Virus record (IMG/VR): IMGVR_UViG_3300025168_000061
DNA: 64,000 nt
Strand: one strand, 5' to 3'
DNA from: an uncultured virus (IMG/VR IMGVR_UViG_3300025168_000061)
Lineage: Duplodnaviria > Heunggongvirae > Uroviricota > Caudoviricetes
The translations under genes were made by a program, and so were the position numbers. Below, in pieces: positions 1,762 through 64,000 of the stretch. Each line of letters begins with the position of its first letter. The first letter of the stretch is position 1. Below the pieces are notes generated by a model that was given only the letters and a program-made list of their open reading frames with translations, was not told the DNA's origin and did no database searches.

Positions 1762-3387
1762 TTACATCATTCCCATCATTGCTGAAGGGTCTATTTCTGG
1801 TGTATTAGATTCTGATGGTTTGTCAACAATTGTTGCTTCTGTTAGTAGAATAGTTCCCGCAATTGAAGAAGCATTTTGTAATGCACTTCTTGTTACTTTA
1901 AATGGATCTATAATACCCGCATCTTTTAGGTTAACGTTTTCACTTGTTTTGATGTTATATCCATCCCAATTTAATGTTTCAACTGTAGTGGATATTTCTG
2001 TGGCTTCTTCATTAGTGTAACCTGCATTGGTTAGGATTTGAATAAATGGTTGTTTACATGCCTTTTTAACTATGTAAGCACCAAATTCAAAATCAGCATT
2101 TCCTTTGCATTCTACTTTTAATGAAGCACCCAATAAAGCAACTCCACCACCAGGTAGGATTCCTTCTTCAATTGCAGCTTTAGTAGCATGTAAGGCATCA
2201 TCAACTCTATCTTTCTTTTCATTCATCTCAGTTTCTGTGTTTCCACCAACATGAACAATTGCTACCCCACCTACAAACTTAGACATTCTATTCTGCAAGC
2301 TTTCCATTTCAAATGGTGTTTGGGCATTTTCAATTTGTGTTGATAATTCTTCAACTCGGCTTGTAATAGCTTCTTCACTACCCTTACCATCAACAATTGT
2401 GGTTTTTTCTTTGGAGATTGTTGCTACTCTAGCTTCACCAAACCATTCCCAACTGAATTTTTCGAGTTTCATTCCTTTTTCTTTAGTAAATACTTGACCA
2501 CCTGTTAATGTAGCTATATCCTCTAAGACTAATTTTTTTCTATCTCCGAATTCAGGTGCTTTTACAGCACATACTTTTAAAGTGCCTCTCATCTTATTTA
2601 CAATAAGGGTAGCTAAGGCTTCATTATCAATATCATCTGCGATAATTAATAATGATTTATTAGTGTTAGATACACCCTCTAAAATTGGTAATAATTCCTT
2701 TACTTGAGTAAATTTATGGTCAGCAACTAAAACATAAACATCATTTAATGTTGATGTCATTGTATTATTGTTAGTAACAAAATATGGAGATTTAAATCCT
2801 CTATTAAATTGCATACCCTCAACAGTCTCTAAATATGTTTCTCCTGTTTTAGATTCTTCAATATGAACAACACCTTCTCTACCTACTTTTTCCATTGCTC
2901 TGGATATAAGTTTTCCTATTGTTTCATCATTATTAGCTGAAATAGTAGCGATTTGTTCTAGTTGTTCTGGGGAAGATACATCTTCGTTAATTGTTCTTAG
3001 TTGAGTTATAACTTGCTCTACAGCACTGTCAATTCCTCTTTTAATATCTACAGCATTTGCTCCCTCATCTAAAGCCGATAATCCTGCTTTAACCATTTCT
3101 CTAGCTAATAAAGTAGATGTAGTTGTACCATCACCTGCGTTATCTGCGGTTTTAATAGCGGCTTGTTTGATCATTTGAACCCCTAACTCTTCAGTTGGAT
3201 CATCTAATGAAATATTTTTAGCTACTGTTACTCCATCCTTTGTGGATTGTGGGGATTGTCCTGGTTTAGAAATTACTACGTTTCTACCATTTGGTCCTAA
3301 TGTAGATACTACTGCATTGGCCATTGTGTCTATACCTGATACTAATTTTGCTCTAGCCTCAGGTCCAAATTCAATAATTTTACTCAT
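1762..3387 (-). CDS. groEL: Chaperonin GroEL
   Basis: TLGPNGRNV, TKDGVTVAK, GDGTTT, VEGMQFNRG, C-terminal MMGMM. Confidence 0.98.
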   Translation of the reverse strand: MSKIIEFGPEARAKLVSGIDTMANAVVSTLGPNGRNVVISKPGQSPQSTKDGVTVAKNISLDDPTEELGVQMIKQAAIKTADNAGDGTTTSTLLAREMVKAGLSALDEGANAVDIKRGIDSAVEQVITQLRTINEDVSSPEQLEQIATISANNDETIGKLISRAMEKVGREGVVHIEESKTGETYLETVEGMQFNRGFKSPYFVTNNNTMTSTLNDVYVLVADHKFTQVKELLPILEGVSNTNKSLLIIADDIDNEALATLIVNKMRGTLKVCAVKAPEFGDRKKLVLEDIATLTGGQVFTKEKGMKLEKFSWEWFGEARVATISKEKTTIVDGKGSEEAITSRVEELSTQIENAQTPFEMESLQNRMSKFVGGVAIVHVGGNTETEMNEKKDRVDDALHATKAAIEEGILPGGGVALLGASLKVECKGNADFEFGAYIVKKACKQPFIQILTNAGYTNEEATEISTTVETLNWDGYNIKTSENVNLKDAGIIDPFKVTRSALQNASSIAGTILLTEATIVDKPSESNTPEIDPSAMMGMM

Positions 3388-3388
3388 A

Positions 3389-3715
3389 TTACTTTGTTGT
3401 TTTTGATTCTTCTGTTAATACTTCTGATTTTACTCTAGCTAGGATTTGTGTTTCTTGCCCTATGTAGTACTCATCTCCTTTGTGTTCTAATTTAGTAAAA
3501 CCAATTGTAGGTAAGATAACACTATCTCCTACTTGGATTTCAGTTTCTATGAAACCTACTCCTCCAACATGGCGACCAGGACCAACAGCTACTACTGTTC
3601 CATGTTCGTTTCTGTCTTTACCTAAATCTGGTACTACTATTGAACCATAAGTTGTTTCCTCTTCTTCTTGAGGTTTAACGATAACCGCATCAAATAATGC
3701 TTCTAATTCTGTCAT
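3389..3715 (-). CDS. groES: Co-chaperonin GroES
   Basis: LFDAVIVK, TTYGSIVVP mobile loop, GTVVAVGPG; adjacent to groEL. Confidence 0.95.
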   Translation of the reverse strand: MTELEALFDAVIVKPQEEEETTYGSIVVPDLGKDRNEHGTVVAVGPGRHVGGVGFIETEIQVGDSVILPTIGFTKLEHKGDEYYIGQETQILARVKSEVLTEESKTTK

Positions 3716-52193: not shown

Positions 52194-53231
52194 TTATTTT
52201 AAACCTGCCAATTTTTGGAACCTTTCCACCATAGGGTCAGTTGCAATAATTGGGTTTTTAGTTTTAAAGTTTCCTGTTGCCTTTGAGGCAGAACCTAAAG
52301 ATTCTCTAATTGGTGCTTTTTTTCTTTTTAATCCTTCGTTTAAAGTTTCAAATACCAATTTAGTTTCTTTTACTGTAGTTGCTTTATCAAATGCACCTAA
52401 TACTTTAACTTTTTCATTTTCAGTTAAGCTTTTAGCTTTGAAAATTTTATTAGTGTATAACAATTTAGCGTTTAACAGGTTAACTTCATTTATTTCATGT
52501 TTAAGAGTATTAACAGTAGAGTTAGATTTTTTAAGATCTTCCTTTAATCTTGATACTTCTTTGTAAACTTCAGCTAATGAATTATCTTCACTAACTTCTA
52601 CAGTTTCATCATCTACAATGTCGATGTCGATTTCTTCATCATCATCAGAATCATCAGACATAACTTCCATGTCTTCTTCTTCTTCTTCAAATTCATCACC
52701 GGCTTCTAATTCACCTGATGAAACCATATCTGCGATAACATCTTCAATGAATCCTTTAAGGTCTTCATCAGTCATATCTTCAAGATCAAGATCTGAGGAT
52801 TTTTCATCCTCCATATCTTCTTTCTCGTCTTCCATACCGTCTTCATAGCCTTCTTCTTCGGCGTCTGTTCTAGCATCTTCTGTGACTGCTTCTTCCTCTT
52901 CTAATTCACTTTCGATTTCATTTAATAGTTCGTCTAGATTGATTTCTTCTTCGATATCAGATTCAGCAAGGTCTTTTCCATACTTCATTTTTTCAGTACG
53001 TTTAGTTTCTTTACTTTCTCCTCCATCTCCACGATCATCACCTTCTTCTTTTTCTTTTTTAGACATTTCATCAATGTCTTCTTTTTCCATCTCCTCTAAT
53101 TTTGCAGATAACATGGATTTAAGTTGAGGTGTGAAAGCTTCTTCTAGAGCTGCTTTTGCATTTGCGATAGCTGTTTCTTTAACGGCTTTAGCGTCAGCAA
53201 TAGCTTCTTTGAGAATATCTCGTTTTGCCAT
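52194..53231 (-). CDS. Prohead scaffold protein (gp22-like)
   Basis: Highly acidic, coiled-coil, many L/I-x-E sites; between protease and capsid genes. Confidence 0.85.
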   Translation of the reverse strand: MAKRDILKEAIADAKAVKETAIANAKAALEEAFTPQLKSMLSAKLEEMEKEDIDEMSKKEKEEGDDRGDGGESKETKRTEKMKYGKDLAESDIEEEINLDELLNEIESELEEEEAVTEDARTDAEEEGYEDGMEDEKEDMEDEKSSDLDLEDMTDEDLKGFIEDVIADMVSSGELEAGDEFEEEEEDMEVMSDDSDDDEEIDIDIVDDETVEVSEDNSLAEVYKEVSRLKEDLKKSNSTVNTLKHEINEVNLLNAKLLYTNKIFKAKSLTENEKVKVLGAFDKATTVKETKLVFETLNEGLKRKKAPIRESLGSASKATGNFKTKNPIIATDPMVERFQKLAGLK

Positions 53232-53371: not shown

Positions 53372-53974
53372 TTAAAACATTGGGCAGTTTCCATTAGCAC
53401 ATAATATTTCTGTTACTATGCTATTTGCTTTTGAGTATGGGTTTATAATATTTTCTTTACCTTCTTTAATTGTTTTCATGTATGAGCCTGGGTTAGAAGG
53501 TGTTGAAACAAAGTCCCAACATAATAATTCAAAGTCGTCTTGTACTTCCATTACACCACCACTTTCTTCTAATGAACCCATTCCACGAGAGGATACACCG
53601 CATGTAATACCACTTTCGATTAGTGCTTTAAGTATGTTTCCAGATGGTGTAGGTAGTATTTCTATTTTACCTATTACATTATCTCCATCCCACCACATAT
53701 CTTTTATGTTGTGGGAGACGTTTTTTAAGTTAATTACTTGAGACTCTGGGTGGTCTAATTCTCCCATTGCTCTGTTTTCTTTAACTAGTTCTTTGTACTT
53801 ATCGATTTCTCGGTTCCATAAATCTTTAGAGTAATATCTTCCATTACCGTTTTTTATTTCAGCTGTAGCTAAAATACCTTCAACGATTGGATTACCTCTT
53901 TCAGACATTTTACCTTCTGATAATAAACCTGGGGTAGGTTTAAATAACTGTGTTTCAATAAGTACTTGTTTCAT
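53372..53974 (-). CDS. Prohead protease (gp21-like)
   Basis: NGNGRYY, GELDHP, VSH, TPSG.I, GVSSRGMGS, DFVSTPS. Confidence 0.96.
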   Translation of the reverse strand: MKQVLIETQLFKPTPGLLSEGKMSERGNPIVEGILATAEIKNGNGRYYSKDLWNREIDKYKELVKENRAMGELDHPESQVINLKNVSHNIKDMWWDGDNVIGKIEILPTPSGNILKALIESGITCGVSSRGMGSLEESGGVMEVQDDFELLCWDFVSTPSNPGSYMKTIKEGKENIINPYSKANSIVTEILCANGNCPMF

Positions 53975-53975
53975 A

Positions 53976-55481
53976 TTAATAATCTCCCATTTTAAGTCCT
54001 AAATGTTGTTCTATAAATTCTTTTATCTCTTCTATAGACATTCCTGCTTCATATGCCATTTCAACTGCATCTGCTACTGCTTCCATATGTTCAGGTGCCC
54101 CGTCCATTCTATCTTCTTCTAATTCAATAGAATCAACAGTTGCCTTAAATTCTCCAGCACTATCATTTGCGGCATCCATATTTGTTTTTAATTCTTCAGC
54201 ATCCTCTTTAGGACCCTCATTCAAATTAAAATAATCCATGTAGTTTTTATGAGAAAATCCTGTACCTGATACAATGCCACCTGCAATTGCTATTTCATTA
54301 ACTAGTTTTTTAGATTTATCTTCATCATGGGCTACAATAAACTCACCAACTTTTGCACCTGATATTACTTTTTTTATTTGAGCTAAATCTGCATCTTTAA
54401 AATCCATCCCAAATTCTCCTCTATTGGTGAATTTAATACCTTTATCTTTTAAAGCCTGTCTTACTATTTTAGTATCTTTTTTAGCTTTACTACTTGTTCC
54501 TTTTCTTATGATAGCGCCATTAAATTTTGCTTCTTTTATTAATTTTCTTCTTCTACGTTTGTGTTCTTTTAAACCTCTCCCTCCAGGTGCATTATCTGCA
54601 GGGGAGTATTTAGAACGTGTTTTTTCGATTTCAGAATCTATGAATTGAAGTACTTGAACATCTGTTGGGTTTTCAATTTTATCAAAAAACCTTACAACAT
54701 TTTCATAAAAGTCATCATTGTATCCATCTATAAAATCATCTGCAAAATCTTGTCCTTTTTTAGAAGATATATATGCTCTAATCTTATCATAGTCTAAATC
54801 TAATACATCGGGTCCGAATTCCGTATTAGCATCATTCATATAAGTGTATTCACCTTCTTTTATTAATTTTCTTCTTCTACGTTTGTGTTCTTTTAGTTTA
54901 CCATAACCACTTGATTTGTATTCACCTTTTGGTTCTACTGGTTTGCCTAAACTTGGAGCTTCGTCAGTGTAACCTAAATCTTTTTCTCCGAATTGACCAT
55001 TTTTAGTATAAAAAATAGGGTCTTTAGCTAAGTTTTTATAAACAATCTCTAGTAATTCTTGGTCTGTTTTCCCTTCGTTTTTAGGATCTTTGTATTCACA
55101 ATAGTATCCCATTTGGATTTGACCAAAAATCATGTTGTTTGGGTCTTTTTTATCTAATGTGTCATATCCATTAGCTTGGTCTTCTTCAACCTCTTTAGAT
55201 ACTTTCTTTTCTTCAGCTTTTACCTCTGCTTCTGCTATAAAGTTTGCAAATGCATTTTCGTATCCTTCTTTCTTTCTTTCTAGTGGGTTTCCTACCATAG
55301 GAATACCAACAAAGTTTTCGGAGATTATATTCTTTTGCTTAAGAATTTTAGATGCTTCATTATATGTAGCCCCTTGTCTTATTAAATTAGGGAATAGTTT
55401 TTTTGCTTCTTTTAAGAAAACACCTTTATGGCCCTTGTCTTCCTTAATTAATCTGTATTGTTCAGTTAATGTTTTTTTCAT
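53976..55481 (-). CDS. Modular internal head (core) protein, candidate polyprotein
   Basis: Between portal and protease; many L/I-x-E sites; duplicated LKEHKRRRRKLIKE. Confidence 0.8.
   Translation of the reverse strand: MKKTLTEQYRLIKEDKGHKGVFLKEAKKLFPNLIRQGATYNEASKILKQKNIISENFVGIPMVGNPLERKKEGYENAFANFIAEAEVKAEEKKVSKEVEEDQANGYDTLDKKDPNNMIFGQIQMGYYCEYKDPKNEGKTDQELLEIVYKNLAKDPIFYTKNGQFGEKDLGYTDEAPSLGKPVEPKGEYKSSGYGKLKEHKRRRRKLIKEGEYTYMNDANTEFGPDVLDLDYDKIRAYISSKKGQDFADDFIDGYNDDFYENVVRFFDKIENPTDVQVLQFIDSEIEKTRSKYSPADNAPGGRGLKEHKRRRRKLIKEAKFNGAIIRKGTSSKAKKDTKIVRQALKDKGIKFTNRGEFGMDFKDADLAQIKKVISGAKVGEFIVAHDEDKSKKLVNEIAIAGGIVSGTGFSHKNYMDYFNLNEGPKEDAEELKTNMDAANDSAGEFKATVDSIELEEDRMDGAPEHMEAVADAVEMAYEAGMSIEEIKEFIEQHLGLKMGDY
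54530..54895. repeat. Exact 42-bp direct repeat (54530-54571 and 54854-54895)
   Basis: cttcttttattaattttcttcttctacgtttgtgttctttta twice, 324 bp apart and in frame. Confidence 0.95.
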
Positions 55482-56464
55482 TCTCCTTGTTTTAATAATT
55501 TTGTTATGTCATCCAATAATTCATTTACCATATCCGTTGAATATACTATTGCATATGAACCTGGGTTTTCATTATAATATTGGGCTGTTTCGTTTTTTGC
55601 GTTTGATAAAAGTGGTGATATAGAATTTATTTTTTCTTCTACATCCGTAAATATGTTAATTCTGTTTTGTTGGAAATCACTGTATTCAGTTAATTCCTCT
55701 TTTTCAAATAATTGTTTTACTATAGTACCTGCTCCTTTAATTTTTTTAGGTACAGGTTTAAAACCTAATTTATAATAATAAATATCCTTAGCTCCGGTTG
55801 AAGATTTATTTTTGTCAAATGCTCTTGGAGTTAGATAACCCATACCTTCACCTTCTTCAACTTCTTCTTCTTTTATAGAAAGTTCTTCTTCTAATGCAGA
55901 ACCAAAAATAGAATTAAAAGCCTTACTTAATTTAACAAGTTTGTTTTTTAGGTTTGAATAATCAAATTCTTCAGGTGCCATACTATAAAGAATATTACCC
56001 TGGGGTTTATTATGGTGTTTTGATAATTCTACTTCTAATCTTTCTATGTTATTTATAAGGTTATTAAGTGTCTTAAGGGTTAGATTTAAGGGTCTCTTAA
56101 CATTATTAACATCTAATTGTGTCCATTGCTCAGATTCTTTTACCATTCTGATCCTGTCATAGGCTTCAGGGTAATTCTTTCTAACATGGGTTCTGTATTG
56201 GTTAAATAGTTTTTTTACTTGGTCTGTAATTGAATCAATTGTTGAATCAGATTCTGCTTCACCTTCACTTTCTAATGTCCTTAGTAGTTTATTTAACTCA
56301 TTAAAAGTTTTATAAACAGTATCAAATGCGCCTACATTTATTATATCCCATGAAATCGCCCCAGTTACAGGGTTAATATCAGTTACTGTGGATTTGGTTC
56401 CGTCTTTGACTTTTATATCACCAACTTCAAATTCACTATTTTCTTTTAATTTAAATTTATACAT
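55478..56464 (-). CDS. Putative head core protein
   Basis: MYKFKLKE start, GYLTPRAF motif, position in the head module. Confidence 0.75.
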   Translation of the reverse strand: MYKFKLKENSEFEVGDIKVKDGTKSTVTDINPVTGAISWDIINVGAFDTVYKTFNELNKLLRTLESEGEAESDSTIDSITDQVKKLFNQYRTHVRKNYPEAYDRIRMVKESEQWTQLDVNNVKRPLNLTLKTLNNLINNIERLEVELSKHHNKPQGNILYSMAPEEFDYSNLKNKLVKLSKAFNSIFGSALEEELSIKEEEVEEGEGMGYLTPRAFDKNKSSTGAKDIYYYKLGFKPVPKKIKGAGTIVKQLFEKEELTEYSDFQQNRINIFTDVEEKINSISPLLSNAKNETAQYYNENPGSYAIVYSTDMVNELLDDITKLLKQGE

Positions 56465-57314
56465 GGGTAGTTTCTAATTCTTCAATTAAATCGTAATATT
56501 GTAACAAATTGATAAGATCGTTATCTTTAATTTTAGACGTTTTACCTATAACAGGAAGTATTTTAATTACTTCGTTTATTTTGATCTGTGTTGTTTTGTC
56601 TGGGATTGTGTTTGATAGCTCTGTTAGTGAGGTTTTAATTTCACCTACTTTAGTATTATAAAATTCCTTTAACTTTGGGGTATTGTCTATTGAGGTAATT
56701 AATTCCTTTAAAATTTCTTTTTGACTTTCAAGTAAATCCTCATACTTGTCATTGAACTTGTTTAATAAAACCCTAGTTGTTAAAATTCTTAAATCTTTAT
56801 CATATGATTTAAATTCTTCAAGCACTGTTTCCTTAACTTTATCTTTTTTAACTGAGGCAGCTGATAGGTGTTCTAAGATAGTTATTTTATTATCTATAAT
56901 TTGTTGTGTGTTTGATGGGTTTTCTTGGGAAAAACTTTCTATTAAAGTATAAAAAGCAGCTTGTATTTTATAGTGTGGTAAATTGTGGGAGAAAAATTTA
57001 GTAACATCGTAATGTTTTTTAATCTCACTAATTAAATTATATTTTTGTCTTTTAAGTGCTCGTCTATTAAAATTCTTAGAAGATTGCAACAAAGTTGATA
57101 ACGTTACATCAGCTTGGGTTTCAGTAATGCTAGTTTTCTTAAATAGAGTTTCATAGAGTTTATATTCTCTCCCTAATTCTGTTTTTACAAAATATTCTTT
57201 TAGAATACCACTTGCCTTAGAATCAGTACCATTTAATGTATCAGTAGTTATTTGTCTAACTAGTAGCTCAAAAAGAACCCCTGCGTTTTTGTACTTTGAA
57301 TGCTTAATGTTCAT
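56457..57314 (-). CDS. Head-module hypothetical protein
   Basis: KHSKYKNAGVLFELL start; follows the portal; TATTTATA at 57334-57341. Confidence 0.8.
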   Translation of the reverse strand: MNIKHSKYKNAGVLFELLVRQITTDTLNGTDSKASGILKEYFVKTELGREYKLYETLFKKTSITETQADVTLSTLLQSSKNFNRRALKRQKYNLISEIKKHYDVTKFFSHNLPHYKIQAAFYTLIESFSQENPSNTQQIIDNKITILEHLSAASVKKDKVKETVLEEFKSYDKDLRILTTRVLLNKFNDKYEDLLESQKEILKELITSIDNTPKLKEFYNTKVGEIKTSLTELSNTIPDKTTQIKINEVIKILPVIGKTSKIKDNDLINLLQYYDLIEELETTHV

Positions 57315-57353: not shown

Positions 57354-59246
57354 TTACTCTTTCAACTGTTTTTCATCAAGTAGGTCATTTTTCTTTTCAT
57401 CTTGCTCAAATACTAATTGCTTTTCAGTACGATGTGGTGAAGGTACTTTATCTAGCATATTTAAAGTTTCTAAAGCCAATGGAGATCTACCTTTATATGA
57501 TGGGTTAAGTCTACCATTATCATTATAATCTTTTTTTATTCCATCTTTACCTATTGGATCCTTCCCAAAAGCACTGTTTTGTGTATGTGATTTAGAATGT
57601 TTTTCTTTTGGTCTTCCTAATGGGGTTTTCTCATCATACCCATCTGGAACATTACTTGGGTCTGATTGTGTTCTACCTACTCCATATAAAGATGCTAAAT
57701 CATGTGGTGTACCATAAGATTTACCTGTTTCTTGTGGATCATTACCTTCAGCTTCTATTTGAGTTAATCTAAAGTTACGTTTAGTATCTTGCTTAATTAA
57801 ATCTCTATATTCATCGTATTGATCTTCACTAAAGTGGAATATGTTTTCATAAATCCAATCAGATGGAATCAATTTACTATCTAACATTGATTGTGCCAAT
57901 GTGATCTTATCGGTCATTAATGCTACTCTTTCTTGATCGTATATGATTGATGGAGTAGTCAAAGACAAATCAAAGTTTGTTAAATTTTCATCTTTATAAC
58001 CCAAAGTATACAAATGAACTAATGCTATCTTCTGTAGTTCAGATACCATAATTCTTTGAATTCTTTCTATCGTTCTAGCAAATCTAATATCTTGTGCCGC
58101 TAGTGTAGCTTTACCTTCTGTATCTGCATCATACCCCATAAACGCTTTAGGGACTTTAAGTGCCGCAAATAACTTATCTCTTAAATATTCTACATCAGCT
58201 ATACCATCGTATTGTAATCCGGGGGTAGTATCTATTTTTGTTGCTGTGTCATTTCCTCTAACAGGTATGTAAAAATCTTCAAGCATGTTTTGCATGTTGT
58301 ATTTAAGATTATACTCTCCGGTTTGTGGATCTGTAAAAGGTGTACGTTTCATTTTAGAAATAGTCTTCTGCATAAAGTTTTCTACTTCAGCAGGAGGAAT
58401 GTTACCTACGTTCATGTAAAATATGCGCTTTTCAGGCGCTCTAACTATTCTATGTATCAACATTGCGTCTTCCATTAGAACGTACTGTTTAAACAGTTTA
58501 CGTGCTGGTTCTATATATGATCTGCCATATGGAAGGAAATTAGTATCAGTTAATAATCTAAAATGAGCCATTTCATAATTATCAAATAGAATGGCATTAT
58601 CACTTACATCATTTGAGTTAGGAACATTATAGTAACCATAACCCCCTGTTGATAAACCATTAGGGTCAAATTGGAATTGGATATCTGCAGGTTTATCAGG
58701 ATCTCCACCTTCTATTCTTTCAATATGAAATGCATTATAAGGTATAACATTATAAACACCAAATTTTTCTGCTATTTCTAATTTAAGGAAAAAATCCCCA
58801 TATTTACACATATTTCTAACCCAAGGCCATAGGTTAAATTCTATGTTTAATACATCATAAAATAAATTGTATAATATTTTTTGGACATTTTCATCTGAAC
58901 TTCTAATTTGAAGTACTTCACCCATGTCATTTTTAAGTGTAGACTCATCTGCTATAATATCTAAGGCAGAAGCTATAATAGCATCTGTATCCATAGAATC
59001 ATATTCTGAATATAGTTGGGGTCTTAATGTTTGGTAATTGTAATTACTTTGAGAGCCGTATAGTGATGTAGGTGATGTTGAGTATAATCTATTGAACCTA
59101 TCTACTAGTGAGTTGTTTTCATACTCACCGGATTGTTGGATTTTATTTATATCAACAACTTTTAATTGGTCTCCACCTTGATTACGTATTATAACATCTG
59201 TTGAGAATAACCTTTTTAACCTTGAAAATAATCTTGTATCTGCCAT
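57354..59246 (-). CDS. Portal protein (gp20-like)
   Basis: LMEDAMLIHRI.RAPEKRIFY..VGNIP, MLEDFYIP.RG, ALKVPK, DIRF; TATTTATA at 59260-59267. Confidence 0.96.
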   Translation of the reverse strand: MADTRLFSRLKRLFSTDVIIRNQGGDQLKVVDINKIQQSGEYENNSLVDRFNRLYSTSPTSLYGSQSNYNYQTLRPQLYSEYDSMDTDAIIASALDIIADESTLKNDMGEVLQIRSSDENVQKILYNLFYDVLNIEFNLWPWVRNMCKYGDFFLKLEIAEKFGVYNVIPYNAFHIERIEGGDPDKPADIQFQFDPNGLSTGGYGYYNVPNSNDVSDNAILFDNYEMAHFRLLTDTNFLPYGRSYIEPARKLFKQYVLMEDAMLIHRIVRAPEKRIFYMNVGNIPPAEVENFMQKTISKMKRTPFTDPQTGEYNLKYNMQNMLEDFYIPVRGNDTATKIDTTPGLQYDGIADVEYLRDKLFAALKVPKAFMGYDADTEGKATLAAQDIRFARTIERIQRIMVSELQKIALVHLYTLGYKDENLTNFDLSLTTPSIIYDQERVALMTDKITLAQSMLDSKLIPSDWIYENIFHFSEDQYDEYRDLIKQDTKRNFRLTQIEAEGNDPQETGKSYGTPHDLASLYGVGRTQSDPSNVPDGYDEKTPLGRPKEKHSKSHTQNSAFGKDPIGKDGIKKDYNDNGRLNPSYKGRSPLALETLNMLDKVPSPHRTEKQLVFEQDEKKNDLLDEKQLKE

Positions 59247-61301: not shown

Positions 61302-61587
61302 TTCGTTTTTTTTCTAAAGCTGCTAGTTTAGTTTCTGTTTCTTTTAAGATAACTTCAGTACTATCTATAGCATATAGTATAATGTTGATTTCGTTTTGTA
61401 GTTTACTATTAGCTAAACTGAGACTATCGTTGGATAGTCTTAGTTTTTTGTTTTGTTTTTTTAATAGATTTATTTCATCCTTATAAGTATCAATTGGAGT
61501 TGATGGTTTGGATAATAGGCTTAAAATTAATGCAACTGCTAATATTATTATAAAAACTAATTGTATGTTATTAAAGAGCTTTTTCAA
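61207..61587 (-). CDS. N-terminal TM + coiled-coil protein, i-spanin-like
   Basis: Single TM segment followed by heptad repeats. Confidence 0.55.
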   Translation of the reverse strand: MKKLFNNIQLVFIIILAVALILSLLSKPSTPIDTYKDEINLLKKQNKKLRLSNDSLSLANSKLQNEINIILYAIDSTEVILKETETKLAALEKKRNEIPNIINNMDSDDVTNNISDYLKRRGKGNN

Positions 61588-62497
61588 GTTGTTTCTTTTC
61601 TTTAGTCATTTTCTTTAATTGCTCCACGTACTTTTCCATATCATTGGTAGCATTTGCTTTTTTTGCTCTTTTATAACTACCTGCTATGTCCTTCATTTTT
61701 TTAGTTAGCTTTTGAAGTTTATTTGAAGTTGTAGCTATTGAATCTTTTTTCTTTAATTCTGCTGATGTTGGTTCTTCTTCTTCTCTTAAATCTCCTTCAG
61801 CAAGTCTTAATTGATCACTACTATATTCTACTGTTTCATCTCCTATTTCTGGGAAATCAACATTTGCATTAAATTTGGTTCCATCTAGTTTTTCAACTCT
61901 ATAAGCCATTTTGTCAGACGCAAATAATTGTCTTACACCAACTACTCTTAGTTTATCACCTCCTCTTGTTAGGGTTACTATATCATCTAATTGGATTTCT
62001 TCTGATAATACAGATTTAATTTCTGCTTTGATTGCTTCTTTTAATTTAGATCTTTTATTTTTTCCAGCATCTGTCATTTCTTTCTTTTCTTCTCTAATAG
62101 AAATATCATCTAGTGCATCCATTGTATCTCCAAAACCTGGCATATCATACTTTGTATCTGATTTTCGTTGTTCTAAAGCTGCCATAATTGCATACACAGC
62201 ATCTTGTTCGCTATAATCATATCGTTTAGCAGTTCTTGCAATGTAACGATTTACATCTCTAAATACTTCAGGGTTTAATGATTCGTTTAGTCCTCTTTCT
62301 CTATCCATCATTCTTGAGACTTCGGCTGCTTGTAAAGCGTCTATGGCTCTACCCATTAAGTCTTTCTTTCTCTTATCAACATAGATATTTTGCATGTCTC
62401 TAAGAACTCTAAATGCTTCATCTGTAGTCATTAGACCTTCTGATAGAAGTGATTTTATTTTGCTTTTGATTGCTTCTTTGAGCGTGGATTTTTTCAT
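61571..62497 (-). CDS. Modular internal head protein candidate (probable start ATG 62497)
   Basis: MKKSTLKEAIKSKIKSLLSE is repeated internally as KRSKLKEAIKAEIKSVLSE; TATTTATT variant at 62512-62519. Confidence 0.75.
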   Translation of the reverse strand: MKKSTLKEAIKSKIKSLLSEGLMTTDEAFRVLRDMQNIYVDKRKKDLMGRAIDALQAAEVSRMMDRERGLNESLNPEVFRDVNRYIARTAKRYDYSEQDAVYAIMAALEQRKSDTKYDMPGFGDTMDALDDISIREEKKEMTDAGKNKRSKLKEAIKAEIKSVLSEEIQLDDIVTLTRGGDKLRVVGVRQLFASDKMAYRVEKLDGTKFNANVDFPEIGDETVEYSSDQLRLAEGDLREEEEPTSAELKKKDSIATTSNKLQKLTKKMKDIAGSYKRAKKANATNDMEKYVEQLKKMTKEKKQLEKAL

Positions 62498-62519: not shown

Positions 62520-63050
62520 TTAAACACTTAGTGCCTCTCGCACTAACTTAACACGCTCCTCATTACTGCCCTTAATTTCTACCAGATTTTTAATTCTATG
62601 GTTGTACTTATTAATAAAGCTTTTAATTGATGAATCAACTAAATCCCTATATTCCGCATCTGTTTCTCTAACCCCATTGTTTTCTATTTCAACTCCCTCA
62701 GGGGAAACATAGAATATATAATCATAATCTGATATTAGATTAGATGCATGTTGTGTAAAGTCATCAGCATGAATATAAGATATTGTTTTAGCTAAATTTG
62801 TAAATGCTATAACATCTATAATAGTTCTATCCGTTATAACGTTTTCATTCATTAATTCAGCTGCTCTTTCAGCTAAAAACACTGTTTGACCCTTAATGGT
62901 AGAATCTGTGTTTAATGGAATACCTAAATCTCTTAAGTATTTGGATCGTTCTGTTTTGAACTCATATTCTTTGAACTCAGGGAGTTCCTTTAGTGTATTT
63001 ACAAGTGTTGTTTTACCAACACTCATTGTACCACAAAAACCTATCTTCAT
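62520..63050 (-). CDS. P-loop nucleotide kinase (AAA_28 / NadR-like)
   Basis: GTMSVGKTT, ITDRT.ID, YDYIFY, NGVRE. Confidence 0.85.
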   Translation of the reverse strand: MKIGFCGTMSVGKTTLVNTLKELPEFKEYEFKTERSKYLRDLGIPLNTDSTIKGQTVFLAERAAELMNENVITDRTIIDVIAFTNLAKTISYIHADDFTQHASNLISDYDYIFYVSPEGVEIENNGVRETDAEYRDLVDSSIKSFINKYNHRIKNLVEIKGSNEERVKLVREALSV

Positions 63051-63056
63051 AATTAT

Positions 63057-63085
63057 AATATAATAAAATTGTTTAACGTATCAAA
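63057..63085 (-). promoter_or_regulatory. TTTG-N19-TATATT promoter (kinase), 6 nt from the ATG
   Basis: TTTGATACGTTAAACAATTTTATTATATT. Confidence 0.65.
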
Positions 63086-63356
63086 ATCTAGCTACAGCTT
63101 TCATTGATGGATTTTTATACCAAGGTAAACCTTCTTTACTTTGTTGAAATTCATTAAACTCATCATAAGTTTTTTCAATTCCATGGAAGTAATATTGTTT
63201 TGGAATACTTCTATCTTCTGGGTCAACTGGTTCAATTGCAGGACCTTCTGAATTGTGGTGTTTCCAATTGTCACTAGCGTTTCCTCTAAATAAATGGTGA
63301 AAAGCACCCTTTACTTTAATTTTCTTGTACTCGTAAAATTTCTCTTTCTTGCTCAT
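63081..63356 (-). CDS. Hypothetical protein (91 aa)
   Basis: H...GPA...YY.HG motif; overlaps the oxidoreductase end. Confidence 0.75.
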   Translation of the reverse strand: MSKKEKFYEYKKIKVKGAFHHLFRGNASDNWKHHNSEGPAIEPVDPEDRSIPKQYYFHGIEKTYDEFNEFQQSKEGLPWYKNPSMKAVARF

Positions 63357-64000
63357 TTTCGTTTTGTTTTAGTAAATTTTCTGCTACATATGTTCCTTGT
63401 GCTCCTGATACTGTTATACCTCTTGCTGATAATGCATCTCCAACAAAGTGAACATTGTCATATTTGGTTAAAGATAAATTATCGTAGTTAACTAATGGTT
63501 CTGGGGATAGATATTTTACTTCTGGCATGTAAATACCCCAATCTTTACCTAATGTTGGGAATACTTTTTCCATATCTTCAATAAAGTCTTCTATATACAA
63601 AGCATAATCACCTAAAGCATCATGTAGTGAATCCATACTGTTAACTATTTCTGTTTTAACATAATCGCCTTCAGATGTTTTAGATGGTACTCTGTTTGAG
63701 TTAGGTGAATAAAATGTTCCTTTACCATCAATTTGTAATTTTTTAACTGCTTCTCTTGACCAATCAAATGGTTTATCGATACCTCTAATTTCCATTAGTA
63801 TACCAAAATTAGTCATATCATTACGAAATGCTTCATCTTTTTTAGCATGACCATTGTAGCTGTAATCTCCGTAGGTATGCTCTGCTGCTACATAAGCTGC
63901 ATTGTTGTTTGTACAAAATGATCTTAATGAAACACCTTTATCTTCAAATTTTCTATATAATTTAAAATCATAACTAATATCAATTAATTTTTGAAAGTGG
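63316..64000 (-). CDS. FAD-dependent oxidoreductase (COG2509-like), 3' part; starts outside the window
   Basis: Frame open to the edge: RSFCTN...NGH, TNFGIL, PEVKY, VGDA...RGI..SG..G. Confidence 0.85.
   Translation of the reverse strand, partial: HFQKLIDISYDFKLYRKFEDKGVSLRSFCTNNNAAYVAAEHTYGDYSYNGHAKKDEAFRNDMTNFGILMEIRGIDKPFDWSREAVKKLQIDGKGTFYSPNSNRVPSKTSEGDYVKTEIVNSMDSLHDALGDYALYIEDFIEDMEKVFPTLGKDWGIYMPEVKYLSPEPLVNYDNLSLTKYDNVHFVGDALSARGITVSGAQGTYVAENLLKQNENEQEREILRVQEN

Follow-up and report, generated by a model that had tools for sequence, protein, structure and literature searches.

An exchangeable module slot bordered by candidate maturation-protease motifs in a head-operon gene of an uncultured marine T4-type phage

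The window analyzed here is the whole 64,000-nucleotide (nt) stretch of DNA of an uncultured virus of the class Caudoviricetes (IMG/VR record IMGVR_UViG_3300025168_000061). Its head operon includes a gene for a modular protein of 501 amino acids (aa) located directly upstream of the prohead protease gene, and this 501-aa gene is the subject of the present work. Comparison with homologues showed that conserved N-terminal and C-terminal parts of the protein enclose a polymorphic slot, with breakpoints located at (L/I/V)-x-E junctions or at a short spacer. In phage T4, the prohead protease gp21 is reported to cut after L/I-X-E, and cleavage breaks gp22, gp67, and gp68 of the core into several fragments (PMC9026906). 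The 501-aa gene and its parts, in order from the N-terminus of the protein, are as follows.

53976..55481, minus strand: modular prohead-operon gene, open reading frame (ORF) of 501 aa
55407..55481, minus strand: N-terminal leader region, aa 1-25, MKKTLTEQYRLIKE followed by DKGHKGVFLKE, with I-K-E at aa 12-14 and L-K-E at aa 23-25
54888..55406, minus strand: conserved N-module, aa 26-198, C-terminal end PKGEYKSSGYGKLKE
54854..54895, minus strand: repeat copy before the acidic module, encoding (L)KEHKRRRRKLIKE(G), aa 196-210
54564..54854, minus strand: acidic candidate cargo module, aa 210-306, 97 aa, GEYTYMND...GGRGLKE, predicted to be helical
54530..54571, minus strand: repeat copy before the basic module, encoding (L)KEHKRRRRKLIKE(A), aa 304-318
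54294..54530, minus strand: basic candidate cargo module, aa 318-396, 79 aa, AKFNGAIIRKG...KKLVNE, predicted beta-alpha-beta-beta-alpha-beta
54216..54293, minus strand: conserved Gly-rich peptide IAIAGGIVSGTGFSHKNYMDYFNLNE, aa 397-422, found in each of the 113 parsed homologues regardless of insert
53979..54215, minus strand: acidic linker, aa 423-456, ending in LEE, and conserved C-terminal helical module, aa 457-501 (...EQHLGLKMGDY)

The two candidate cargo modules are each preceded by a copy of an exact 42-nt direct repeat identified by repeat finding (54530-54571 and 54854-54895; 100% identical, start-to-start spacing 324). When up to three mismatches were allowed, the 42-mer had only these two matches in the 64-kb window, against 0 expected from 100 dinucleotide-preserving shuffles. 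The repeat is in frame, and both copies encode KEHKRRRRKLIKE, at aa 197-209 and 305-317, with a Leu before each. The acidic module has a net charge of -11 and an isoelectric point (pI) of 4.2, the basic module has a net charge of +8 and a pI of 9.9, and the 11-aa spacer HKRRRRKLIKE carries a net charge of +6. Further motifs of the same type follow downstream: LVNE at aa 393-396, LNE at aa 420-422, and LEE at aa 454-456. A preliminary description of this DNA had noted an exact in-frame 42-bp repeat, 324 bp apart, around an acidic module, then a basic module followed by LVNE, LNE, and LEE, all in a gene directly upstream of the prohead protease. Each of these features was confirmed: the acidic module has 97 aa, the motifs are present in the translation, and the next ORF (53372-53974) matches Peptidase_S77. 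The protein is not predicted to fold as one unit. The AlphaFold2 model of the full protein, built from 150 sequences, had a predicted template modeling score (pTM) of 0.29, with confident, separate pieces at aa 1-55, 120-170, 230-292, and 318-386, and with linkers of low confidence at the junctions (predicted local distance difference test, pLDDT, below 50 at aa 184-228, 293-304, 387-411, and 422-464). Within the acidic module, helices were predicted at aa 231-291 with pLDDT of ~75, and the basic module reached pLDDT of ~90. The N-module modeled alone had pLDDT of 81 and pTM of 0.42.

Searches with the protein and its parts returned no known family. The 501-aa protein had no Pfam match above the cut-off, no PHROG match, and no match to a peptidase family at an expect value (E) of 0.01 or below, the protease being the separate downstream gene. 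A fold search with the N-module model gave no fold match (best VIA-align Z 4.2; Foldseek E of at least 3.5), and a profile search of PDB sequences with the N-module yielded coiled-coil noise only (E>=0.01). Foldseek comparison of the full model to the PDB gave no match at E<=1e-3, the rows returned being ferredoxin-like, of ~75 aa, with E of 0.3-1. The BFVD search retrieved uncharacterized relatives only, and the ESM Atlas search with the acidic module gave no usable match, the Atlas model itself having a pLDDT of 0.53.

In a metagenome protein collection, 2264 homologues of the 501-aa protein were detected at E<=1e-3; the 120 listed ones are 276-646 aa long, and their matches fall mainly in the first 40% of the 501-aa query. 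When aa 1-199 were searched by themselves against 1.84 billion cluster representatives, 544 clusters (50% identity) matched at E<=1e-3, and in the 150 of these that were listed, the N-module match lies at or near the N-terminus of proteins of 152-1000 aa, with unrelated sequence downstream. In the alignment of 150 sequences, T4, L5, and Y9 of the leader are invariant, and Q8, L11, I12, K13, L23, K24, and E25 are at least 90% conserved, as are L420 and E422 of the Gly-rich peptide. The conserved C-part reads HSISMAGGIVTGTGF..NYMDYFNLNE across the homologues, followed by an acidic linker and ...AYEAGMSIEEI.EF.EQHLGLKMGDY.

Between these conserved parts, the content of the slot varies. We parsed the slot in 121 sequences (the window protein and the 120 listed homologues), of which 113 were resolved and 8 did not fit the anchors. 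In 36 of the 113, there is no insert, and LKE joins HSISMAGG directly; 50 carry a 6-7-aa peptide, such as NKEPVNE; and the remaining 27 contain inserts of 81-334 aa that belong to 11 unrelated cargo types. Spacers of the K-L-(I/L)-K-E type precede these 11 types in the 501-aa gene family, and the acidic module is found behind both a spacer of this type and a leader. The acidic module occurs alone in P0001-P0003 and L052-L054, and the basic module occurs alone, behind NKILKE or HKRRRRKLIKE, in 15 of the 120 listed homologues. The polybasic spacer was found, in one copy each, in 11 of the 120, most of the others having NKILKE-type spacers or none; two copies are present only in the window protein among the 121 sequences. 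Since the polybasic form is found in a minority of homologues, the system can do without the Arg run. Further inserts with several modules are probable, judging from the sequence of P0025, in which a 334-aa insert contains an internal TEGKLLDE. A second slot is located inside the N-part, where a 54-aa insert lies between NFLAE and GLFE in P0001, P0004, and P0007.

In addition, a related 16-aa amphipathic peptide, (S/Q)KLRSLIRNIIKEEL, was observed in 36 of 148 new representatives of the N-module family (P0136-P0259), in the context L.E, then (S/Q)KLRSLIRNIIKE, then EL. Its position varies: it can follow the N-module or lie internally, and roughly a third of the cases have it at the extreme C-terminus; (L/V/M)-x-E nearly always precedes it. 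Because this peptide occurs both internally and at the extreme C-terminus, the spacer class may have a role of its own besides marking a cut, such as tethering or targeting.

Every parsed junction in the 113 homologues follows (L/I/V)-x-E. The three residues before the slot are LKE in 99 sequences, VNE in 13, and LNE in 1, and those before the C-part are VNE in 49, LKE in 36, INE in 17, and LNE in 11. Independently of the parsing, 15 distinct contexts were found upstream of the acidic module, and in 13 of them the module starts immediately behind [LIVMF]xE (the two misses being a false match of the regular expression inside the N-module and KEKE in L068); the basic module does so in all 8 of its contexts. 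At least five delimiters can precede the same module: HKRRRRKLIKE, NKHRRRKPLKE, LAEG(K/R)LLKE, LSEGRLFKE, and ENKILKE.

The boundaries can also be traced at the DNA level. Over the N-module and up to the LKEH codons, the window shares ~96% identity with L002 and L003, both of which are insert-free; it diverges after these codons and becomes near-identical to insert-free alleles again from GCAGGTGGC (AGG) on. L052, which has only the acidic module, L055, which has only the basic one, and both copies in the window share the same 40-nt spacer DNA, AAAGAACACAAACGTAGAAGAAGAAAATTAATAAAAGAAG, and differ only in the Leu codon just ahead of it; as related alleles differ at that codon, the exact 42-mer had 0 matches in scans of metagenome and viral contigs. 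The acid-only allele ends in GGT TTA AAA GAA CAT TCA (GLKEH, then SIS), compared to GGT TTA AAA GAA CAC AAA CGT in the window, and thus, each cassette is flanked by LKEH codons. Modules are therefore present, absent, or replaced among orthologues rather than colinear, and the breakpoints fall at the spacer or at (L/I/V)-x-E junctions, both as anticipated in the preliminary description. Its further suggestion, that the repeat serves as a recombination handle, stood in part: the identity of the spacer DNA in three alleles with different cargo fits it, and the exchange itself is inferred. That junction and spacer DNA act in cassette exchange appears quite probable to us.

The same modules were also found on other carriers. 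When metagenomes were scanned with aa 197-396, the cargo region, 18 loci were retrieved, comprising 6 N-module genes and 12 leader-type genes. In the 12 leader-type loci, the acidic module is located behind a different N-terminal leader, MDNFDLRKYLAEGKLLKE (the MDNFDLRKYLAEG leader), which takes the form M(D/N/E/K)(N/D)F(D/N)L(R/K)KYLAEG(R/K)LLKE or a close variant, with the acidic module directly after it. In L057 and L061, the acidic module is followed by KYLAEGKLLKE and a further unrelated module, and in L065, another module and NLSEGRLFKE lie ahead of it. In leader-type loci, identity to the acidic module is 53-87% over the best tblastn segments. The FDLRKYLAEG pattern was found in 113 IMG/VR stretches that represent 109 distinct contexts; in 106 of the 109, it comes right after the start Met and is followed by (K/R)L(L/Y/F)(K)E and then by unrelated sequence. 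The related loci contain both separate and fused leader genes, and in the middle of the ORF at L064 2913-4151 lies another complete leader, Met included, which indicates that neighboring genes fused. The RKYLAEG pattern had 0 matches in Flavobacterium phage vB_FspM_immuto (hereafter immuto), and the leader-type protein L057 2462-2989 had no tblastn match in 50,697 phage records.

Several of these leader-type genes form arrays of 3-5 (L048 1393-3518; L057 996-2992; L064 1890-4816), each gene starting with M(D/N)NF(D/N)LRKYLAEG(K/R)LLKE and with (A/S/T)EGKLLKE separators inside. One recurrent cargo type in the arrays starts with AAMACPLPTQNLELNTKNRDS, and one cargo has a P-loop, GAPGAGKGS. The right end of the window (62520-63816, minus strand) is syntenic with L048 4354-6556, that is, with genes downstream of the leader array and the scaffold-like gene of that locus; an equivalent leader array would therefore lie just beyond position 64000.

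A third setting is a coiled-coil, scaffold-like protein in the IMG/VR loci L047 and L048, in which the basic module forms a C-terminal extension: ...RWQKLAGISVQE, then NKILKE, then EKYSGAIIRKG.... The best tblastn segment of the basic module in the L048 carrier is 80% identical. The RWQKLAGI motif that precedes the module resembles the C-terminus of the scaffold-like protein encoded in the window (...VERFQKLAGLK). The carriers (L047 6-941; L048 3533-4225) have the layout ...KEMQKEIKEIRKMQEKLKKVYEKK...RWQKLAGISVQE with the basic module at the C-terminus, and in L047, a further module of ~150 aa comes after NNLLKE. Their coiled-coil segment also makes up the C-terminus of many distant N-module proteins (P0159, P0165, and P0197).

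The operon in which the 501-aa gene is embedded runs from the portal protein to the major capsid protein (MCP) in the order portal, 285-aa gene, 328-aa gene, 501-aa gene, S77 protease, scaffold-like protein, gp23-family MCP. The neighbors of the 501-aa gene are listed below in this order.

57354..59246, minus strand: portal protein, gp20 family (PF07230, E 4.7e-69)
56457..57314, minus strand: conserved 285-aa operon gene, 42% identical to immuto26A_198, with 4.9 [LI]xE per 100 aa, the highest in the window
55478..56464, minus strand: 328-aa gene upstream in the same operon, with a variable middle (comparison with L002 and L012)
53372..53974, minus strand: prohead protease, S77 (T4 gp21 family), 200 aa (PF03420, E 5.7e-31; PHROG 207, head maturation protease, E 1.8e-60)
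52194..53231, minus strand: acidic scaffold-like protein, 345 aa, assigned from position and composition; C-terminus ...VERFQKLAGLK; 4.3 [LI]xE per 100 aa
50494..52167, minus strand: major capsid protein, gp23 family (PF07068, E 9.7e-74)

All but 1 of the 73 non-overlapping ORFs in the window are on the minus strand. The ends and starts of the 501-aa gene and protease ORFs are one base apart, and the two genes are probably translationally coupled. The N-module was found in 46 related IMG/VR loci, and the gene order is the same in 37 of the 37 that have enough downstream DNA; in these 37 loci, the start of the homologue and the start of the protease gene are ~0.9-1.8 kb apart. The nearest cultured phage by capsid is immuto, the MCP of which is 59% identical over the whole length. 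The immuto protein immuto26A_200 (360 aa), encoded directly upstream of the immuto protease, matches the N-terminal part of the 501-aa protein (31% identity over 191 aa, E 2e-9) and has AIQE and FIAE at the places that correspond to I-K-E and L-K-E of the leader. The window sequence occurs in sequencing runs of 13 studies, all of them on marine or seawater metagenomes, and a scan of species-representative prokaryote genomes revealed no relative.

Some other genes of the window deserve mention. The 328-aa gene (window 55478-56464, minus strand; L002 2557-3756; L012 2745-4004) has the same build as the 501-aa gene, with a conserved N-part that ends in ...YDRIRMVKE, a conserved C-part that begins with GEG(M/I)GYLTPRAF, and a wholly different middle in each version (328 aa in the window, 399 aa in L002, and 419 aa in L012); the L012 version has an extra N-terminal module ending in VIINE. 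A 308-aa ORF upstream of the terminase gene (61571-62497, minus strand) starts with MKKSTLKEAIKSKIKSLLSEGL and contains early L-x-E motifs, and from its sequence, it might be a further leader-tagged protein. A 541-aa ORF that starts with MSKIIEFGPEARAKL (1762-3387) and the adjoining 108-aa ORF (3389-3715), both on the minus strand, look, by N-terminal sequence, like phage-encoded GroEL and GroES.

Considering these observations together, we favor, on balance, the interpretation that the 501-aa gene encodes a prohead-core carrier protein of a marine T4-type phage, with an exchangeable cargo slot, that is cleaved at the junctions. The conserved leader and N-module (aa 1-198) and the C-part (aa 397-501) would enclose a slot that can be empty or hold one or several small cargo modules that fold independently; a short spacer ending in K-L-(I/L)-K-E would lie ahead of each module, and (L/I/V)-x-E would bound it. 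By analogy with T4, the conserved parts, perhaps helped by the spacers, would bring the protein into the prohead core, and the product of the adjacent S77 protease gene would cut after the junction Glu. The expected products are the N-module, the acidic module, the basic module, two +6 peptides HKRRRRKLIKE, and C-terminal pieces. At the DNA level, the LKEH codons and the 40-nt spacer would provide short homology for insertion, deletion, and combination of cassettes, and recombination of an acid-only allele resembling L052 with a basic-only one resembling L055, with the crossover falling within ~11 nt of LKEH microhomology, would yield the tandem allele of the window. More speculatively, the freed modules might remain inside the head and be carried into the host along with the DNA, as happens with the T4 internal proteins.

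We infer packaging, cleavage, and delivery or anti-defense function by analogy with T4 gp21, its L/I-X-E rule, and the capsid-targeting sequence (CTS). On this analogy, packaging and cleavage of the 501-aa protein are likely, and delivery of the modules into the host as effectors is a possibility that we hold with somewhat more doubt than belief. A broader scenario can be put forward tentatively, in which a pool of modules circulates among at least three classes of head-internal carriers, namely, the N-module/C-part gene beside the protease, the scaffold-like protein, and the arrays of leader-tagged genes resembling those of internal proteins. Circulation would be mediated by the class of peptides ending in K-L-(I/L)-K-E, which might act as packaging tag, protease site, and recombination handle at once, such that phages could recombine co-injected proteins, counter-defense factors included, and a polybasic DNA-binding peptide would be released.

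Several points weigh against the carrier interpretation. Literature searches turned up neither proteomic nor biochemical or genetic data on phages of this group, and tblastn with the 501-aa protein found no match in 50,697 phage records. No module matched a known function in Pfam, among PDB folds at E<=1e-3, or in the Atlas, and Pfam comparison of 98 of the 148 new N-module representatives gave 0 matches above the cut-off and 3 below it. Comparison of the 150-sequence alignment to T4 gp68 and gp67 by hhalign detected no similarity (probability 0.3% and 0.2%, respectively). The count of left junctions is partly circular, the motif being contained in the regular expression used, whereas the counts of module starts and DNA breakpoints are independent of it. 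The 501-aa protein has 14 [LI]xE sites, several of them in predicted helices of the N-module, and the cut positions cannot be read from the motif alone. The right breakpoint of the basic cassette lies 3-4 residues past the Glu (IAI versus HSISM before AGG), so the breakpoints either coincide with the motif or lie a few residues from it. The second copy of the spacer is modeled as a helix (aa 302-316, pLDDT 50-57) and could be a structural linker. Finally, the acidic and basic modules occur in one gene only in the window, among the 121 sequences, and Logan unitigs from four runs break inside both repeat copies, with no contig bridging the repeats.

Among the other explanations, the one that survives best is that the gene encodes a prohead core or scaffold protein with variable filler, which is packaged and cut, with the pieces expelled or left as inert peptides, like most fragments of T4 gp22, gp67, and gp68, and with the inserts only tuning core volume, charge, or head size and having no delivered function. 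The position of the gene, between portal and protease like the T4 core genes 67 and 68, is compatible with such a role, and most T4 core fragments are reported to leave the head (PMC9026906). Cargo is dispensable, given that 86 of the 113 parsed homologues lack a cargo module (36 with no insert and 50 with 6-7 aa), and the modules have no recognizable enzymatic or anti-defense domain. However, the modules are conserved as units across unrelated carriers, which points to selection on the module; they are predicted to fold alone, the basic one with the high confidence given above; and the leader-type genes that share them resemble the T-even internal-protein genes, the products of which are injected effectors. 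We consider variable filler unlikely, though clearly the most serious competitor of the carrier interpretation.

An alternative to cleavage is that the product is an uncleaved multidomain head or ejection protein, in which the K/E-rich spacers are flexible or helical linkers, shuffling takes place at these linkers, as it does in other modular proteins, and L-x-E motifs follow from a composition rich in K, L, and E. The helical model of the second spacer would suit a linker, [LI]xE is common in this K/E-rich proteome (0-4.9 per 100 aa among the window ORFs), and some phage polyvalent proteins, such as the N4 virion RNA polymerase, are reported to be packaged unprocessed (PMC5512222). Composition does not readily account, however, for the retention of Glu while the other junction residues vary (LKE, VNE, INE, LNE, LIKE, LLKE, LFKE, and VVKE), and the same peptide is the N-terminal leader of standalone genes, where a linker role makes no sense; the gene moreover adjoins the S77 protease gene, with which it is probably translationally coupled. 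This explanation thus seems improbable.

The last alternative concerns only the tandem arrangement, which might be an assembly artefact that joined an acid-cargo and a basic-cargo variant through their shared spacer. Such a join would be in keeping with the restriction of both modules to the window among the 121 sequences, with the existence of acid-only and basic-only alleles that share the spacer DNA, and with the lack of unitigs bridging the repeats in all four runs. No joint skipping 324 bases was seen in these runs, and unitigs that break in the repeats can neither show nor exclude tandem or deletion forms; a contig of X3 joins position 54284 to 54886 with 13 other letters in between, consistent with an insert-free allele in the X3 sample. 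Unitig depth in run X1 is even, at 25.7 for the protease, 26.5 and 24.9 for the basic part, 25.3 for the acidic part, and 28.8, 28, and 30.5 for the N-module. An artefact is very improbable, considering that the acid-only allele shares just ~11 nt (TTAAAAGAACA) at the module tail, which would be short for an assembler, that two mixed variants would about double the N-module depth in X1 (a weak hint, as X1 may be the source sample), and that L057, L061, and L065 are natural examples of multi-module genes in which delimiters recur; it would, in any case, leave the cassette system itself unaffected.

The closest known counterpart of the carrier and its modules is the T-even internal-protein/CTS system processed by gp21. 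In T4, ten-residue CTS propeptides are reported to target internal proteins to the core and are then removed (PMC9026906). The T-even internal proteins have only the leader in common and are diverse anti-restriction factors that are injected (PMC3012670, PMC12373910), and all three T4 internal proteins are now reported to block restriction enzymes (PMC12373910). Both T4 IPII and IPIII start with MKTYQEFIAE, and the N-terminus of the 501-aa protein is MKKTLTEQYRLIKE. As with the T4 internal proteins (IPI, IPII, IPIII, and Alt), there is an S77 protease in a T4-type head operon (portal PF07230, MCP PF07068), short peptides ending in (L/I)-x-E lie ahead of unrelated small proteins, and the cargo set differs between related phages. 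Unlike in T4, where the cargo consists of separate genes with an N-terminal leader, here cargo is located inside a conserved head-operon carrier gene, can be chained with the spacer repeated internally, and occurs as the same modules on the scaffold-like carrier and in leader-type genes as well; the leader sequences also differ from those of T4.

With T4 gp67 and gp68, the 501-aa protein shares its position between portal and protease and multiple L/I-x-E motifs (T4 gp67 has DLIKE and FLIE). The T4 pair is reported to be cut into several fragments by gp21 (PMC9026906). The differences are the absence of detectable sequence or profile similarity, the length (501 aa compared to 80 and 141 aa), and the folded modules exchanged between phages. 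In the phiKZ-like giant phages (phiKZ, 201phi2-1, and SPN3US), which have a gp21-related protease, many head-internal proteins, comprising inner-body and ejection proteins, are reported to be cut after Glu at short motifs, with several sites per propeptide; in the passages compared, these are separate genes or paralogues with N-terminal propeptides, and neither cassette modules between conserved ends nor a repeated spacer is described (PMC9026906, PMC5694885, PMC7411985, PMC10052503). Polyvalent proteins (Iyer et al. 2017, PMC5512222) are similar in uniting several mutually unrelated modules in a single polypeptide, the gene of which is close to virion genes, in being predicted to be packaged and delivered, and in that proteolytic release has been proposed. 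In contrast to the present modules, which match no known domain, polyvalent proteins are described as carrying recognizable conflict domains and often, though not universally, an embedded zincin-like metallopeptidase (PMC5512222); here, a head-maturation protease is encoded by a gene of its own, and its motif is found at the joints. In the literature searched, we found no description of the cassette arrangement or of the peptide strings and, among the papers listed, no relevant immuto virion proteome.

The three internal proteins of T4, with their ten-residue capsid-targeting sequence, are the textbook example of protein loading into a phage head for delivery. The locus described here suggests that uncultured marine relatives of T4, which are abundant, have turned internal-protein loading into a cassette system, with cargo exchanged at the protease motif. 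The presence of the carrier gene in a cultured phage, the Flavobacterium phage immuto, makes this idea testable. If cutting and packaging are confirmed, the junction rule would allow packaged cargo in metagenomic phages to be listed from sequence, a large set of small unassigned proteins would become candidates for roles in early host take-over or counter-defense, and the carrier would represent a natural design for loading T4-type capsids with multiple cargos.

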